Part shown: one piece after another, positions 9,813 through 15,135 of the stretch
How positions within the stretch are numbered: position 1 is the first letter of the stretch
Layout of the letters: every line of letters starts with the position of its first letter
Assembly (NCBI GenBank): GCA_934756675.1
Contig: CAKVLG010000001.1
Location: 128,540 to 192,539 of the forward strand
Reading direction: 5' to 3'
From: an uncultured Clostridia bacterium
GTDB lineage: Bacteria; Bacillota; Clostridia; Christensenellales; UBA1242
DNA: 64,000 bases
Notes under the pieces: model-generated
Database searches by the model: none
Told to the model about the DNA's origin: nothing
The model's input: only the letters and a program-made list of their open reading frames with translations
Made by a program: the position numbers and the translations under genes

Positions 9813-10010
9813 ATATCCCCCTAGTTTTCTATAGTATGGCAAAAACTCATGCTTTGTTGCAAATGATTTGAGCACAATTTTAAAAATCCGCCCTAAAATT
9901 TTAGTGAATTATTACTTTAGTAATAAAATATTTCGTTGACAATTATTTTGCGCTGTGATACATTACTCGTGCTTAAATTTTTGCAATAAAAAAGCCCAGG
10001 ATTCTGGACT

Positions 10011-10055
10011 TGGTGCACCATAAGGGATTCTAACCCCTAACCCTCGGTTCCGAAG
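10011..10055 (-). pseudogene. Orphan 3' half of a tRNA-Arg(UCG) gene (anticodon loop to CCA)
   Basis: The reverse complement reads cttcggaaccgagggttaggggttagaatcccttatggtgcacca: anticodon loop, 3' anticodon stem, T-arm, acceptor 3' strand and CCA. Its acceptor strand atggtgc pairs perfectly with the 5' half at 13281..13321. Confidence 0.75.
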
Positions 10056-10322
10056 GGGGCGACAAAACTTACCAAATTGTATCATATTTTAATCGTTTTT
10101 TAACATATAAAATCGTTTTGTGATATGGCTAAAACCCCGAGGAATAAAGGCTTTTAGGCACTTTAATTTAACAAAAGTTATCATACAATATTTTGTAAAT
10201 AAAATACAACATTAAACGACATACTCGCAGAATTTTTGCATTTTTATTGTAAATTATCTTAGAAAAGGTATTAAAAAACTATACATTTTATTGCATTTAA
10301 TTTTAGAAATAAAGAAAGAAAT

Positions 10323-10351
10323 TTGACAAAGTAGTTCAAAAGATGTAAGAT
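10323..10351 (+). promoter_or_regulatory. Sigma-A type promoter driving the SAM riboswitch/metK leader
   Basis: TTGACA (10323..10328), a 17-nt spacer, then TAAGAT (10346..10351). Confidence 0.6.
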
Positions 10352-10355
10352 GTTT

Positions 10356-10490
10356 ACATCCATAAAGAGTGTGCGAGGGACAGCCCCGTTGACCACACAG
10401 CAACCTGACAATGGTTAAGGTGCTAAAGGCTGACCGATGGGAACTATATAATTTTTAATCCTATCGGTAACGATGGGATTTTTTAATCCC
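10356..10490 (+). promoter_or_regulatory. SAM-I (S-box) riboswitch with terminator expression platform
   Basis: The conserved S-box core is readable: AAAGAG..GCGAGGGAcaGCCCcgTTGAccac..GCAACC....GGTGCTAAagGC. A terminator follows (aatcctatcg-gtaa-cgatgggatt plus TTTT, 10457..10485). Its 5' strand can alternatively pair with the P1 3' strand (cgatggga). Confidence 0.85.
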
Positions 10491-10524
10491 TTTATGGAAA
10501 TAAAAAATAAAGGATGAAAGAAAA

Positions 10525-11525
10525 ATGAAAAAAAATATTACAAGCGAAAGCGTAAACATTGGGCATCCTGATAAAACTTGTGATGTTATCGCAGATGCCT
10601 TTTTAGATGAAGCACTCTCGCAAGACCCAAATTCACAAATGGCTGTTGAGTGTGCAATTAAAAACAATAAACTTTATATTTACGGAGAAGCAACAACAAA
10701 AGCGAAGATAGATTATGATAGTATTGCACGAGCAATCTTGAAAGATATTGGTTACAAAAATAAATTTAAAATCATTAAAGAAATAAGTAAGCAAAGCCCT
10801 GACATCAATCAAGCTGTTGTTAAAGATGATATTGGTGCGAATGATCAAGGCATGGTTTATGGATACGCAACTAACGAAACAAAAGAATTCATACCATTGC
10901 CTCTCTTAATAGCCCATAAAATAATGCGTCAGTATGAGGCGTTTAGAAGAACAAGGACCGATTTCTTTGCAGATGCAAAAAGCCAAGTAACGGTAGAATA
11001 CAACAATGAAAAACCAAGTAAAATTTCTACTGTTTTAATCTCAGTTTCTCATGATAAAAGGCTTCAACTTGAAGAAATACAACAGTTAATTAAAGAGAAT
11101 GTTTTGGATAAGGTTTTGAAAGAATACAAAAAATACACAAAAGACATTCGCTACATTATCAATCCAAGTGGCAAATTTACAATTTGGGGTTCTTATGGAG
11201 ATTCTGGTTGCGTTGGAAGAAAGATAGTTGTTGATACTTATGGCGGAGTTGGTCGTGTTGGCGGTGGGTGCTTTTCAAGTAAAAATGCGACCAAGGTTGA
11301 TAGGTCTGGTGCTTATTATGCAAGATTTTGAGTTTTTTAGCACCAGTTTTAGCAAGTGTCGTTTTTATCTTTTTAAAGTTGTTTAAGATTACTTATTCTT
11401 CCCATAAGCAAAGGCATTCAGCCACTTTTGGAGTTATTAAATCACTAAAAGCCCGAAAATATAGGCAAAAGCAAGACTCAAGCGCATTTTTCGCTGTTCC
11501 GTTAGAAAAATTGAGATTTTTATAA
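10525..11525 (+). pseudogene. metK: S-adenosylmethionine synthetase, disrupted (premature stop, then frameshifted remnant)
   Basis: The first 268 aa carry MetK motifs (GHPDK, GANDQGMVYGYA, DAKSQVTVEY, GRKIVVDTYGG, KVDRSGAY). The frame then ends at TGA 11329..11331, where about 110 more residues are expected. Downstream frames hold only weak MetK-like fragments (ITY..ISKGIQPL.., TFG..K). Confidence 0.8.
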
Positions 11526-11584
11526 AATTATTGATACAAAAACAGCTATTGTGTGCTATAATCTCTTATAAGAGGAGTAATAAT

Positions 11585-11989
11585 ATGTTATTTGGACCTA
11601 AATTGCGAAAAGCAGAACTAAAAAACGGCAGAGAATTTTTTATAGAAGAACACAATAAATGTGCCTATTTATATGTCACAAATGAAAGAAGAAATCATAT
11701 CTTTGCTAAGTGTTGGCTTGCAAATTATTGTAAGGCTCCGATTGAAAAAGATATTAAATCAATGGAAAAAGGGATGCAACCAAGGATGCACATCTCTGCT
11801 TGTGCTATTCCAGAGGGTATTGCTCCAATTAAGAATTTTGAATTTAAATGGATTGATGAACAATCATTTGCTGTCATGGTTGAAGGCAAAGCTGTTGCTT
11901 TAATAAGAAATGTATTCACCGACAATGTTGAATGTTATAGCAAATTTATAACAAAAGAAACTTACGGCACAAAGCCACTTAAAATTTAA
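11585..11989 (+). CDS. Hypothetical protein (cargo of the island remnant)
   Basis: 134-aa ORF with an AGGAG Shine-Dalgarno sequence and no recognisable family. Confidence 0.5.
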   Translation: MLFGPKLRKAELKNGREFFIEEHNKCAYLYVTNERRNHIFAKCWLANYCKAPIEKDIKSMEKGMQPRMHISACAIPEGIAPIKNFEFKWIDEQSFAVMVEGKAVALIRNVFTDNVECYSKFITKETYGTKPLKI

Positions 11990-11998
11990 GGAGGATTT

Positions 11999-12610
11999 AT
12001 GAACATTCAGCCTATTTTAGATTTTTATAATAAAAAAATTTCTGCTAAAGAATTTGTTGAAATAGTAAATAATGATAATAGTTTACAAGATGAATTTAAT
12101 AAGGTTTTAAAAAATAGTCCGCCAAATCCTAAAACCACAACAGCAATTGAATGGATGAACACGAGTTATTCAAAAAACACAGATTTAGAAGACGGAACAA
12201 GAGTTGGTGATTATTTAGTCTGGTTATTGATAAGGGATTATTTATCAAAAGGTAAAAATATTCAATATTTAAGCCAAGAAGATATAAATGACTTTATCCT
12301 TAGTGGAATAACAGAAATGTCGTTGGTGTATAATGCGGAGAAAGATGTTGAAAAGTTTATTGTAAACAATGTTATATCCAAACTTGGCAAAATTGAAAGC
12401 ATATCAAAAGCGATTAAAGAAAGCAAAGAAATAGTTAAAACACTGTTTGTTTATGAAAATAAGCCACCGCGCTGGGCGCAAGCCTGTGAATGGCCAATTG
12501 AAAACAACAAGCCAATGGTATTCATTTCGCAAAAGAATGTTGGTGAAAAAGTGACCTATACTTTTAAAGACAGTAAATCACAAATAAAAGAAATTGTTCA
12601 GTATTATTAA
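11999..12610 (+). CDS. Hypothetical protein (cargo of the island remnant)
   Basis: 203-aa ORF with an AAGGAGG Shine-Dalgarno sequence. The C-terminal motif KPPRWAQACEWPIENNKPMVFISQ resembles, from memory only, the P.W.Q...WP...G.PM.F..Q block of YwqG/DUF1963-type proteins found in toxin-immunity loci. Confidence 0.55.
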   Translation: MNIQPILDFYNKKISAKEFVEIVNNDNSLQDEFNKVLKNSPPNPKTTTAIEWMNTSYSKNTDLEDGTRVGDYLVWLLIRDYLSKGKNIQYLSQEDINDFILSGITEMSLVYNAEKDVEKFIVNNVISKLGKIESISKAIKESKEIVKTLFVYENKPPRWAQACEWPIENNKPMVFISQKNVGEKVTYTFKDSKSQIKEIVQYY

Positions 12611-12618
12611 AACGGTAA

Positions 12619-12888
12619 AACTCGTGTGCAAGTTTAATGCTTGCAAACGGAACTCCAATGAAAAACATACAAGAATGGCTAGGACACTCAAATTTTAACA
12701 CCACAGCAGATGTTTATTCCCATGTTGATTTTAGTGCTAAAATAGAATCCGCCAAAATAATAGATAAAACAATCACTAGAAATAATGATGCTGAAAAAAC
12801 AAAAAAAGAAGATATAAGCGATGAAGAATTTGAGGAATTTTTAGAATGGCGAAGAAGAAAAAAGTTGCAACAAGATAGCGAAATGTAA
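12619..12888 (+). pseudogene. Tyrosine recombinase/integrase, C-terminal fragment only
   Basis: The frame reads SCASLMLANGTPMKNIQEWLGHSNFNTTADVYSHV. This is the conserved box II region, including the LGH motif and the catalytic Tyr in Y-x-H. An in-frame stop lies immediately upstream, so the N-terminal ~250 aa are missing. Confidence 0.8.
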
Positions 12889-12959
12889 AAAAATTGTATT
12901 TTTATGATACTAAAAAGCATTAAAAAACACTATATAAAATCAAACGGTATTTGCACAAA

Positions 12960-12992
12960 ATCTTAGTTTTATCTTAGAAAAATCTTAGAAAA
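12960..12992 (+). repeat. Three tandem 11-nt units ATCTTAG(TTTT/AAAA)
   Basis: The units atcttagtttt|atcttagaaaa|atcttagaaaa run head to tail. The same 11-mer atcttagaaaa recurs at 10256..10266 near the other end of the island. Confidence 0.6.
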
Positions 12993-13096
12993 ACACGATT
13001 TTTGAGCAAAAAAGGGCTAAAAATCACTACATTTTTGAAATCAAAAACTCGAACCCTTAAACAATGATACTTGACAGTGTAAGATATATGTGTGAT

Positions 13097-13135
13097 AAAA
13101 AAATAAAAAATCAGCGACTTGCTAAAAGTCGCTGA
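13097..13135 (-). terminator. Rho-independent terminator downstream of the intact tRNA-Arg
   Basis: tcagcgact-tgctaaa-agtcgctga hairpin (13111..13135) followed, on the minus strand, by a long T-run (A-run 13097..13110 on the plus strand). Confidence 0.65.
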
Positions 13136-13158
13136 AATGCCCTAAAATAAAGGGTTTT

Positions 13159-13235
13159 TGGTGCATCTGTACGGACTTGAACCGTAAACCCTCAGTTCCG
13201 AAGACTGATGCTCTATCCAATTGAGCTACAGATGC
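13159..13235 (-). tRNA. tRNA-Arg (anticodon UCG), CCA encoded
   Basis: The reverse complement gcatctgtagctcaattggatagagcatcagtcttcggaactgagggtttacggttcaagtccgtacagatgcacca folds as a 77-nt cloverleaf. Acceptor gcatctg/cagatgc, anticodon stem tcagt/actga, loop CTTCGGA. Confidence 0.9.
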
Positions 13236-13280
13236 AAATGCAACATTTTTTGATGGGAAATGTCAAACCCCTGACAATCT

Positions 13281-13321
13281 GTTCCGAAGACCGATGCTCT
13301 ATACAGTTGAGCTAATGGTGC
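13281..13321 (-). pseudogene. Orphan 5' half of a tRNA-Arg(UCG) gene (acceptor to anticodon loop)
   Basis: The reverse complement reads gcaccattagctcaactgtatagagcatcggtcttcggaac: acceptor 5' strand, D-arm, anticodon stem and loop. The sequence after it (13236..13280) is only a degenerate T-arm-like stretch and cannot close the acceptor stem. Confidence 0.75.
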
Positions 13322-13374
13322 ATAGAATAATTATATGCCAAATTTTTGCAAAAATCAATTTTGTAGGAGAATAT

Positions 13375-15135
13375 ATGTTTAAACTATTCAAAAAATTAAA
13401 CTATAAGCAATACATTGCCATGTGTTTGTCGCTTATTTTGATAGTTGGTCAAGTTTGGCTCGACCTTAAACTTCCAGACTACATGAACAGTATCACAACA
13501 CTTATTCAAACAAATGGCGCAATTTCAGAGATTTGGAAAAACGGCGGATATATGCTAGCATGTGCACTCGGCAGTCTGTTGCTTTCGTTTGTCGTTGGGT
13601 TCTTCACAGCAAAGATTGCCGCTGGGCTTTCGATGCGACTACGCTCTGATGTATATAACAGCGTTTCAAACTTCTCTAAGGGCGAAATTAACAAGTTTAC
13701 GACATCAAGTTTAATTACACGTACAACTAACGATATAACTCAAGTTCAAATGTTTTTTGCAATGGGTTTGCAAATGTTAATAAAAGCACCTGTTCTCGCT
13801 GTTTGGGCAATTATTAAAATCGCAGGCAAAAGCTGGCAATGGTCACTCACAACAGCTACAGCCGTTTGCGTGCTACTTGTAATGATAACCGTTCTTATTA
13901 TCTTTTGCTTACCTAAGTTCAAAATTGTTCAAAAGCAAACAGATGAAATCAACCGCCTTTCGCGTGAAAACCTAACAGGTCTTAGAATTGTTAAAGCCTT
14001 TAATGCCGAAGCTTATCAAGAAGAAAAGTTTGAAAAGGCAAACAATAACTTAACAAAAACCCAACTCACAACATCAACACTTATGAGCATGCTCAGTCCT
14101 ACCATGACGGCAATTATGAGTGGTCTTAGCCTTGCTATTTATTGGGTTGGTGCAAGCATAATTAAAAATGCTAATATGCTTGACCGCATCGGCCTATATT
14201 CAGACATGATGGTGTTTATGAGCTATTCTGTTCAAATTATAAGCGCATTCATCATGCTTGCATTCATCTTTGTACTTATGCCAAGAGCAATTATTTCAGC
14301 AAGACGTATTAACGAAATTCTTGACACAAAATCTTCTATAACAGACGGCAAAGGTGCTACTCCAACAGAAGTTGGCACAATTAAGTTCGATAATGTCGAC
14401 TTTAAGTATCCAAACGGTCAAGAAGACGTTTTGTCTAACATCAATCTCGACATTAAAAAGGGCGAGTTTGTTGCATTTATTGGTGCAACTGGCTGCGGTA
14501 AATCAACACTTGTAGACCTTGTTCCAAGATTTTTTGACGCAACTAGCGGAACTGTCTATGTCGATGGCGTAGACGTAAAAGACTATAAGCTTAACGACTT
14601 GCACAACCGTATTGGTTATGTTTCGCAAAAGGCAGTGCTATTTACAGGAACGGTGCTTGGCAACGTTACACTTGGAACTGTTGATGGCAAAAAGGTTTCA
14701 AACGAAGACGCAGCTGAAGCGATTAACCGCGCTCAAGCTAGCGAATTTGTAGACAAAATGAGCGAAAAAGAACAGTCATACATTGCTACAAGCGGCAAGA
14801 ATATTTCTGGCGGTCAAAAGCAACGTTTGTCTATCGCAAGAGCAATTGCCAGAAAACCAGAGTTTTTGATTTTCGATGATTCGTTCTCTGCCCTAGATTA
14901 TGCAACAGATAAAAAATTGCGTGCCACCCTTAAAAAAGACTTTAAAGGCACAACAATTTTGCTAGTTGCACAACGTATTGGTACTATTAAAGATGCCGAC
15001 AAGATTGTCGTGCTCGAAGATGGCAAAATTGTTGGCGTTGGTAAGCACAAAGATTTACTAGATAATTGCAAGACATACAAAGACATTGCACTTTCGCAAT
15101 TATCAAAGGAGGAAATCGATGGCACAGAAAAATAG
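13375..15135 (+). CDS. ABC transporter, fused permease/ATP-binding subunit (type-I exporter half-transporter A)
   Basis: Six-TM domain followed by an NBD with Walker A GATGCGKST, signature SGGQKQRLSIAR and Walker B FLIFDD. The start is set at ATG 13375 after an AGGAG Shine-Dalgarno sequence, not at 13294, which lies in the tRNA fragment. Confidence 0.9.
   Translation: MFKLFKKLNYKQYIAMCLSLILIVGQVWLDLKLPDYMNSITTLIQTNGAISEIWKNGGYMLACALGSLLLSFVVGFFTAKIAAGLSMRLRSDVYNSVSNFSKGEINKFTTSSLITRTTNDITQVQMFFAMGLQMLIKAPVLAVWAIIKIAGKSWQWSLTTATAVCVLLVMITVLIIFCLPKFKIVQKQTDEINRLSRENLTGLRIVKAFNAEAYQEEKFEKANNNLTKTQLTTSTLMSMLSPTMTAIMSGLSLAIYWVGASIIKNANMLDRIGLYSDMMVFMSYSVQIISAFIMLAFIFVLMPRAIISARRINEILDTKSSITDGKGATPTEVGTIKFDNVDFKYPNGQEDVLSNINLDIKKGEFVAFIGATGCGKSTLVDLVPRFFDATSGTVYVDGVDVKDYKLNDLHNRIGYVSQKAVLFTGTVLGNVTLGTVDGKKVSNEDAAEAINRAQASEFVDKMSEKEQSYIATSGKNISGGQKQRLSIARAIARKPEFLIFDDSFSALDYATDKKLRATLKKDFKGTTILLVAQRIGTIKDADKIVVLEDGKIVGVGKHKDLLDNCKTYKDIALSQLSKEEIDGTEK

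Follow-up and report, generated by a model that had tools for sequence, protein, structure and literature searches.

What broke a tRNA-Arg(UCG) gene into two halves that now lie more than 3 kb apart, and where does the second, complete tRNA-Arg(UCG) gene between them come from? The question is raised by a stretch of 64,000 nucleotides (the window) from an uncultured Clostridia bacterium of the GTDB lineage Christensenellales, UBA1242 (GenBank assembly GCA_934756675.1, contig CAKVLG010000001.1, positions 128,540 to 192,539). Our analysis points, with a probability that we put at about 85%, to a remnant, itself non-autonomous, of an integrative mobilizable element (IME), similar to a cis-mobilizable element (CIME). 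Its integration into the anticodon loop would have broken the resident tRNA-Arg gene and supplied a cognate tRNA in exchange, and its cassette would have moved again after truncation.

Insertion within the anticodon loop of a resident tRNA-Arg gene

The 5' half of the resident gene (GCACCATTAGCTCAACTGTATAGAGCATCGGTCTTCGGAAC; 13321..13281, minus strand) comprises the 5' strand of the acceptor stem, the D arm and the 5' strand and loop of the anticodon arm, and the displaced 3' half (CTTCGGAACCGAGGGTTAGGGGTTAGAATCCCTTATGGTGCACCA) lies at 10055..10011 on the same strand. The loop sequence CTTCGGAAC forms both the closing 9 nt of the 5' half (13289..13281, core of the left attachment site, attL) and the opening 9 nt of the 3' half (10055..10047, core of attR). 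Merged in silico through this core, the halves gave a 77-nt tRNA-Arg(tcg) by ARAGORN. No tRNA was called by ARAGORN at either junction as it stands, and the sequence that follows the core at attL, AGATTGTCAGGGGTTTGACATTTCCCATCAAAAAATG, is unable to complete a cloverleaf. The crossover was confined to the loop-sized core, and the target gene is disrupted. An earlier, sequence-only reading of this DNA had described the two half-tRNAs, an att-like core repeated at both junctions (10047-10055 and 13281-13289) and a gene that was interrupted by 3,234 bp and not rebuilt; all of this was borne out, the 3,234 bp being the 3225-bp insert (10056..13280) plus one copy of the core.

The same reading had proposed a search for the empty site. 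The gene bordering the 5' half encodes an ABC exporter (586 aa, from ATG 13375), and through it we located contig L002 in public assemblies (ENA ERZ15610551 NODE_38382, 2431 bp; L numbers designate loci and contigs throughout). L002 carries an uninterrupted tRNA of the same sequence as the joined halves, flanked on one side by the ABC exporter gene (99.1% identity over 2248 nt) and on the other by the DNA upstream of xfp (98.1% identity over 210 nt). This tRNA scored 65.2 bits against the Rfam tRNA model (gathering score 29), and the joined halves likewise passed both covariance and ARAGORN scoring (65.2 bits, Rfam). The match between the empty site and the joined halves, together with this score, excludes chance, and since the uninterrupted tRNA lies between the same neighbours, 10056..13280 represents an insertion plus one duplicated core. 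We conclude that the insertion falls precisely within the anticodon loop of the resident gene.

A promoter-like site for the resident tRNA (13330..13358, minus strand; TTGATT-17-TATAAT, 10/12 consensus matches) remains upstream of the 5' half, and the native terminator-like hairpin (9992..10011, minus strand) is still attached to the orphan 3' half. The longest open reading frame (ORF) of the ABC exporter begins at 13294 and overlaps the tRNA 5' half; its true start is the ATG at 13375 behind AGGAGA, and the 586-aa product is found exactly among the called genes of three public assemblies. The resident tRNA itself (window halves; L002 169-242) has TGTA in its D loop and TTAGAAT in its T loop. 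The usual G19 and C56 are thereby replaced by U19 and A56, apparently a compensatory change in a tertiary pair. The same U19/A56 pair occurs in a different tRNA-Arg(UCG) of another element sub-family (L023, L025, L026, L028, L042, L066).

Replacement tRNA, structured spacer and integrase stub

The complete tRNA-Arg(UCG) of the insert (13235..13159, minus strand) was called by ARAGORN and scored 68.9 bits with Rfam. It begins 45 nt inside the insert and shares 59 of 77 positions with the resident tRNA, the acceptor stems (here GCATCTG/CAGATGC) being different. Its anticodon loop (13195-13203) is a third copy of CTTCGGAAC. A hairpin with a T-run resembling an intrinsic terminator follows directly (13135..13111, minus strand, the annotated region extending to 13101), in agreement with the sequence-only reading, which had placed an intact tRNA with its own terminator 45 nt inside the insert. 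That reading had also noticed the stub of an integrase about 270 nt beyond the tRNA and facing it. The measured distance from the stop codon (ending at 12888) is 271 nt, the two genes are convergent, and alignment confirmed that the stub is dead. It occupies 12619..12888 of the plus strand (89 codons in frame; the called ORF has 83 aa from 12637) and matches Pfam PF00589 at profile positions 140-170 only, as well as a PHROG integrase family. The frame opens directly past the HxLRH motif. The stub retains LGHS...VYSH and a charged C-terminal tail and, of the catalytic residues, only the last His and the Tyr nucleophile according to the alignment; the N-terminal domains and the other catalytic residues are missing.

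Two tandem copies of TTTTCTAAGAT (12992..12971, minus strand) lie between the stub and the tRNA, on what would be the P' arm, and a single copy (10266..10256, minus strand) lies on the P arm. The window has no further exact copy; the three all lie within the insert and on one strand, and the tandem pair is kept in L006, L007, L008 and L013. Repeats flanking the core in this way are what arm-type integrase sites would look like, and we regard them as candidates for such sites.

The 45 nt between the junction and the replacement tRNA (13236..13280, minus strand), the element-encoded start of the P' arm, had been taken for a degenerate T-arm look-alike. We found instead a conserved spacer with covarying helices. 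A T-arm-like helix, S1, pairs GGGG (13271..13268) with CCC (13257..13255), and a second, S2, pairs GACATTT (13264..13258) with AAATGTT (13248..13242), all on the minus strand; an A-rich stretch separates the helix strands. The two helices are interleaved in the manner of an H-type pseudoknot. The sub-families have a common pattern: a G-run, TTY, 6-7 variable nt, a C-run, an A-rich stretch and the complement of the variable nt. The best cognate S2 helices had an average of 5.75 bp, with at least 6 bp in 17 of 24, compared with an average of 4.0 bp for non-cognate pairings, 36 of 514 of which reached 6 bp. S1 covaries as well (GTGGG/CCCAC, ATGGG/CCCAT). G-U pairs are confined to the tRNA-sense strand, which suggests that the spacer is transcribed in that sense. 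Judging from this conservation and covariation, the spacer is not the product of random decay; it may serve in processing, in insulating the new tRNA from the similar half-tRNA, or in recombination, and would constitute a new small RNA motif. Searched at E<=1, neither the spacer of the window nor those of three relatives matched an Rfam family. We considered a preQ1-I-like riboswitch, which has a similar architecture (helix, 3-nt loop, second helix, A-rich tail), and rejected it on the lack of a Rfam match at this threshold; the likeness describes shape only.

How could the replacement tRNA be expressed? Our scan found no promoter in the spacer and no terminator-like site between the resident promoter and 13159. 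The best candidate within the spacer, TTGACA-17-TTGCAT, fails the scan criteria, and in other sub-families the -35 box is missing or the -10-like box lies too near the tRNA 5' end. Since these candidates fail, read-through from the host promoter is preferred: with that promoter directly upstream and no terminator intervening, the arrangement suggests that the new tRNA is read from it. In the old-looking insertions L008, L010 and L013 the 5' half is eroded and the adjoining element tRNA intact, as would be expected if the host now relies on the element tRNA.

The opposite end of the insert carries a promoter-like site of its own (10076..10103, minus strand; TTAAAA-16-TACAAT with a TG-extended -10), which reads across the core. 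The sequence beginning AAATATGATACAATTTGGTAAGTTTTG is kept at the P-arm ends of L014, L098, L099 and L104. In the integrated state this site points at the orphan 3' half with its retained native terminator, so that a 3'-half tRNA fragment could be transcribed in carriers.

Recurrence of the design and probable spread of the truncated cassette

We scanned one genome per GTDB species with an alignment of the stub and its database relatives and kept the best 80 of 194 loci, each from a different species. They derive mostly from uncultured Clostridia, including metagenome-assembled genomes named Christensenella or Christensenellales. At 46 of the 80, a host 5' half, a complete cognate tRNA with the same anticodon and a convergent integrase gene occur together; the tRNA is Arg(UCG) at 28 of these, Arg(ACG) at 14, Lys(CUU) at two and Ser(CGA) at two, and the integrase is full-length (open frame of at least 400 aa) at 31 and truncated at 15. 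The complete tRNA lies about 60-1050 nt (usually 220-460) downstream of the integrase gene on the opposite strand. Just past it comes the host 5' half, broken at or just after the anticodon loop (median gap 47 nt). In most relatives the replacement tRNA starts 25-55 nt inside the junction and is co-oriented with the host gene. ARAGORN never called a second tRNA beyond the intact one or at the hybrid junction in any of the 46 loci. Where the far end of the element fell within the fetched flank, we looked for the host 3' half, and matching halves were present in L003/L043, L007, L014, L064 and L084, the joined genes being valid in ARAGORN. The full-length integrases have open frames of 420-460 aa, with the same core and layout, so that intact relatives of the kind sought by the sequence-only reading do exist. 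None of the three outcomes that this reading had named as refuting it was observed when they were tested.

The combinations of tRNA and host half are not fixed. The GCATCTG-type tRNA of the window adjoins differing host halves in L006, L007, L008, L102 and L106, and three other element tRNAs are each found beside three to six different host halves, some with the D arm GCTC/GAGC and others with GTGA/TCAC. An exact search of metagenome contigs with the 35-nt P' spacer of one sub-family recovered fusions to seven further 5' halves, all different. These combinations show that the replacement tRNA belongs to the element and travels with it.

The 52 database relatives of the stub (P0001-P0052) are all short (51-153 aa), their N-termini cut at many positions; in these gut lineages, integrase stubs evidently accompany replacement tRNAs very often. 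As the first protein search returned only fragments, we considered that a full-length integrase might not exist or that the gene might be recoded, which the genomic frames of 420-460 aa rule out. The integrase of L005 is in two pieces owing to a frameshift. More distant integrase relatives (about 42-50% identity; genomes L082 and L083, virome contigs L086 and L087) show the same design at tRNA-Ser(CGA), and one carrier is the cultured Anaerotignum lactatifermentans DSM 14214 (L082). Both virome contigs (L086, MT836946.1; L087, MT836101.1) are labelled 'Bacteriophage sp.'; L086 has the loop sequence with no recognisable 5' half upstream and may represent an attP that has not integrated.

The intact relative L064, about 9.9 kb long with both ends visible, shows what kind of element this is. 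Besides an integrase of 441 aa, which has a SAM-like and a catalytic domain, it encodes a MobL/MobP relaxase, an Xis-like protein of the HTH_17 type, two cytosine methylases and a DUF4238 protein. The Pfam matches of its ten ORFs include no structural family of phages. L005 likewise has MobL and HTH_17. Judged by their gene content, the intact family members are best classified as IMEs, not phages. No structural phage gene was found in the window insert either; its PHROGs matches are to integrase families, the metK family phrog_1569 and, weakly, one family of unknown function. Among 50,697 phage records no close relative was found, the integrase being less than 42% identical at best, and plasmid records matched metK only. 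IMEs are defined by an integrase of their own and a relaxase or oriT, with no complete conjugation apparatus, a definition that fits L064; the window element, with its truncated integrase and no relaxase, is not of this class. With an integrase stub only, and with both cores and both arms, it has the features of a CIME (definition: PMC5704250), and it may be mobilized in cis through accretion of an autonomous element. The window insert contains no working integrase, Xis or relaxase, and both of its att junctions are intact. At the far end of L064 (791-930) there is a second copy of the P-arm end, core, P' spacer and tRNA. In this tRNA an element 5' part seems to be combined with the host 3' half, with a T3-C70 mismatch, which suggests serial integration followed by deletion between cores.

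Besides the stub, the truncated cassette comprises ORF203 (203 aa; 11999..12610), ORF152 (11531..11989; 152 aa, 134 aa as called in public assemblies) and a 3'-truncated metK (10525..11331; 268 aa), all on the plus strand. The same set (metK' of 268 aa, ORF134/152, ORF203 and an integrase stub of 83/88 aa) recurs in no fewer than four tRNA-Arg(UCG) genes whose neighbouring genes all differ, and the exact ORF203 protein is present in 39 blocks of the assembly index in several genomic contexts. Positions 10072..12671 of the window are 99-100% identical to L014, including both truncation junctions, and the host halves and flanks of the two loci are unrelated. The identical truncated cassette in several host tRNA-Arg genes argues that it moved after its truncation and the loss of its integrase, presumably by means of the integrase of a related element. 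The earlier description of the element as decayed is thus correct for the integrase; the cassette itself, found identical in at least four host tRNA-Arg genes, has probably spread since.

Junctions between elements were also observed. L099 contains a tandem attP-type junction (P-arm end, core, P' spacer), and the second element there has a metK of 360 aa. In L104 (at about 5193) the core links the P-arm end with the 3' half of an element tRNA, which implies that the replacement tRNA can itself act as attB and that elements enter the tRNA of a resident element; L008 (685-932) has the same order of P-arm end, core and 3' half of an element-type tRNA. The exact search with a 35-nt P' spacer mentioned above yielded, besides the seven integrated copies, two junctions without a tRNA half (L090, L093), at both of which the core and P' spacer follow non-tRNA sequence. 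In L090 two attL-type copies lie about 2 kb apart (at about 49 and 2133). L093 (7 kb; integrase of 374 aa; junction at about 6900) could be a free or secondary-site form, and a terminal repeat was looked for there and not found.

Could the intact tRNA at 13235..13159 simply be the host gene, rebuilt on integration in the classical way, with the halves as debris of an older and unrelated event? Reconstitution is the way of most known tRNA-targeting elements, whose integration leaves the target gene undisrupted (IME review, PMC5704250), and an attL tRNA usually adjoins the integrase gene, as the intact tRNA does here. The empty site speaks against it, however: in L002 it holds a tRNA of the GCACCAT type and none of the GCATCTG type, which refutes a rebuilt gene. 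Moreover, the GCATCTG tRNA accompanies the element in hosts with differing 5' halves, and attL and attR have only 9 nt in common. We consider this origin very improbable. Somewhat better, though still unlikely, is the notion of a single ancient insertion that decayed in place, was immobile ever since and reached other genomes by common descent. The integrase is indeed dead, several close relatives have truncated integrases and eroded 5' halves, and window and L014 differ in their right-hand modules. But common descent does not explain a left-hand 2.6 kb that is 99-100% identical to L014 between unrelated host tRNA halves and flanking genes, an empty site in a strain with 98-99% identical flanks, or an identical ORF203 protein with the same truncation junctions in at least four gene neighbourhoods.

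We give next to no credence to a functional split gene or giant intron, in which the halves would be expressed and then joined or spliced, as happens with archaeal split tRNAs or with group I introns in anticodon loops. In its favour, the complementarity of the halves is perfect, the break lies at the anticodon loop, the classic intron position, and a promoter-like site faces the 3' half; yet no intron or ribozyme family matched at E<=1, the insert has all its protein-coding genes on the opposite strand, there is no mutual complementarity between the flanks of the two halves, and a terminator stands after the replacement tRNA, upstream of the 3' half. Splicing is not needed to explain the layout, given an integrase, an empty site and dozens of parallel insertions into different tRNAs. 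The chance that a transposase made the insertion, leaving the 9-bp repeat as a target-site duplication, is equally negligible. Direct repeats of nine bp are typical of several transposon families, but here the repeat is constant across independent insertions, being the anticodon loop of the target, and the element itself bears the same 9-mer in its tRNA; no transposase is present, and a tyrosine recombinase is.

The following mechanism would account for the layout. The family would integrate by tyrosine-recombinase strand exchange within the 7-9-nt anticodon loop of tRNA-Arg genes. As attP and target would have the loop alone in common (here CTTCGGAAC), integration could not rebuild the gene; it would fuse the host 5' half to the element spacer and strand the host 3' half at the far end. 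The loss would be compensated by the complete tRNA-Arg of the element, with the same anticodon and orientation and a terminator behind it. After integration, the resident promoter (13358..13330) would read the dead half, the spacer and the new tRNA and transcription would stop at 13135..13111. The replacement tRNA would then be the 3' part of a precursor, with the half-tRNA and structured spacer as its leader, to be freed by RNase P; in circular or tandem forms, the promoter at the P-arm end would take over. The loop-only requirement would let one element enter tRNA-Arg genes with differing stems, and loss of the integrase would leave the host with a foreign tRNA-Arg gene. At the present locus, the integrase would have been cut to 89 codons and metK to 268, and the cassette then moved by the integrase of a related element. 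More tentatively, the module of about 660 bp made up of the integrase 3' end, arm sites, terminator, tRNA, structured leader and loop-sized core might work as a portable "tRNA-swap" device. Requiring the loop alone, its carriers could invade tRNA-Arg genes across highly divergent gut Clostridia, and the pseudoknot-like leader would be required for expression or processing of the incoming tRNA from the captured promoter of the host. A host that came to depend on the foreign tRNA would keep even cassettes without an integrase, which helper elements would hand on, so that tRNA genes would be replaced horizontally.

Several points weigh against this account of integration and replacement. Co-transcription, processing and host dependence on the new tRNA are all inferred, the 64 kb of the window are the part of the host genome covered, so that another tRNA-Arg(UCG) may exist elsewhere, and nearly all sequences are metagenome assemblies. 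Nor is the integrase clade uniform: 15 of the 80 loci show no tRNA within 1.5 kb of the integrase although their sequence continues for 600 nt or more past it (five more loci end before 600 nt), and three adjoin a tRNA-Met beside which no 5' half can be seen. Outside the window type the candidate arm site has no exact copy in the P arm, and a free attP of the window type was not found when metagenome contigs were scanned for its exact pattern. Finally, window and L014 share only 52-75% identity in the right-hand module (12672..13280; integrase tail, arm, tRNA and spacer), in contrast to the 99-100% of the left-hand module, which indicates that modules were exchanged. Part of the spread of the cassette may thus reflect homologous recombination between resident elements instead of site-specific movement of the whole unit. 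The sharp break in identity at about 12672, inside the integrase stub, marks a recombination point between cargo and integration modules.

Relation to known systems

Phages P22, HP1 and corynephage beta (tRNA-Arg) exemplify the classical integration into an anticodon loop, in which the target gene is reconstituted. The present family resembles such phages in its tyrosine integrase, in a crossover in or near the anticodon loop, in having int beside attP and in lambda-like arms. It differs in that their attP carries about 40-50 bp of the tRNA 3' part and rebuilds the gene, whereas here only 9 bp are identical and the remainder of the one-time 3' half has turned, by divergence, into a spacer unable to complete a tRNA. 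Boilgate and Omega are further examples of the reconstituting type (PMC10865867).

The closest parallel is the "tRNA-dependent lysogeny" of Guerrero-Bustamante and Hatfull (2024, PMC10865867), in which the core is short, the gene is not reconstructed and integrants are viable only with a cognate tRNA. Mycobacteriophage Fionnbharth and the Cluster L phages provided the demonstration, other actinobacteriophages (LeBron, Gaia etc.) are confirmed or predicted cases, and the authors ask how far it extends, citing a Lactobacillus prophage as a hint (PMC10865867). That a tRNA should be replaced and not reconstituted is unusual, as the sequence-only reading had remarked; it is, nevertheless, already published for these phages and is a trait of the whole family described here. 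Both systems use a tyrosine integrase and an attB overlapping a host tRNA gene, have putative arm-type sites around the core, share only a short common core (8-17 bp in the phages, 9 nt here) and rebuild no functional tRNA. The hosts are gut Clostridia here and Actinobacteria there, the carrier is an IME or its integrase-less remnant instead of a temperate phage, and the targets are tRNA-Arg(UCG/ACG) or, in relatives, Lys(CUU) or Ser(CGA). In Fionnbharth the tRNA lies elsewhere in the phage genome with a demonstrated promoter of its own; here it lies behind the crossover and the host promoter. The conserved, covarying spacer or leader and the spread of an integrase-less derivative are likewise peculiar to the present family, and the tRNA requirement, proven experimentally for the phages, is a prediction here.

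Prophage Lj965 of Lactobacillus johnsonii, as far as its description in PMC10865867 goes, is also a Firmicutes element whose target tRNA is reportedly not rebuilt and which encodes a cognate tRNA; it is a prophage, and the likeness rests on that description. The tandem attP-type junction in L099, and the integration in L104 of one element into the att-bearing sequence of another, recall CIMEs and the tandem accretion of IMEs and integrative and conjugative elements (ICEs) (PMC5704250, citing Pavlovic et al. 2004). CIMEs described so far flank an intact target, in contrast to the window element, which carries the gene replacing a disrupted one. The present family is also an exception to the rule, stated in the same review, that integration of such elements leaves the target gene undisrupted (PMC5704250).

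Our literature searches found no description of this element family. The principle is known; what is new is its occurrence in non-phage mobilizable elements, in another phylum and at other tRNAs, with the tRNA placed at the crossover, a structured leader and a spread integrase-less form. A principle shown experimentally only for actinobacteriophages, in 2024, is met with here in mobilizable elements of uncultured gut Clostridia, among which it is common. A target of 7-9 nt common to all tRNAs of a given anticodon would mean a broad host range, and the native tRNA gene of a host can be permanently replaced by a foreign one once the element decays. Island-mapping tools that rely on a restored tRNA and a displaced fragment may misplace the ends of such elements. 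Together, integrase, attP and tRNA could serve as an integration vector in organisms that resist manipulation, in line with a proposal made for mycobacteria (PMC10865867).

The remaining genes of the insert gave few matches. ORF203 has none in Pfam, PADLOC or NCBIfam and a single weak one in PHROGs (phrog_13023, a family of unknown function; E 0.0013), and ORF152 has none in Pfam, PADLOC, NCBIfam or PHROGs. The metK cargo stops within its C-terminal domain, matching the Pfam N, M and part of the C domain and positions 2-277 of 377 in TIGR01034. It is preceded by an S-adenosylmethionine (SAM) riboswitch (S-box) leader (10357..10479, plus strand; RF00162, 58.9 bits, gathering score 44.4) with a terminator-like hairpin at 10457..10480. 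Riboswitch and SAM synthetase gene stand together as cargo at the attR end of this group of elements (window 10357-11331; L008 1677-2771; L099 5752-6834). In related elements metK is longer (364 aa in L008, 360 aa in L099), a comparison of length and not of profile coverage, and the window copy is cut at residue 268, the exact end of homology to L008.

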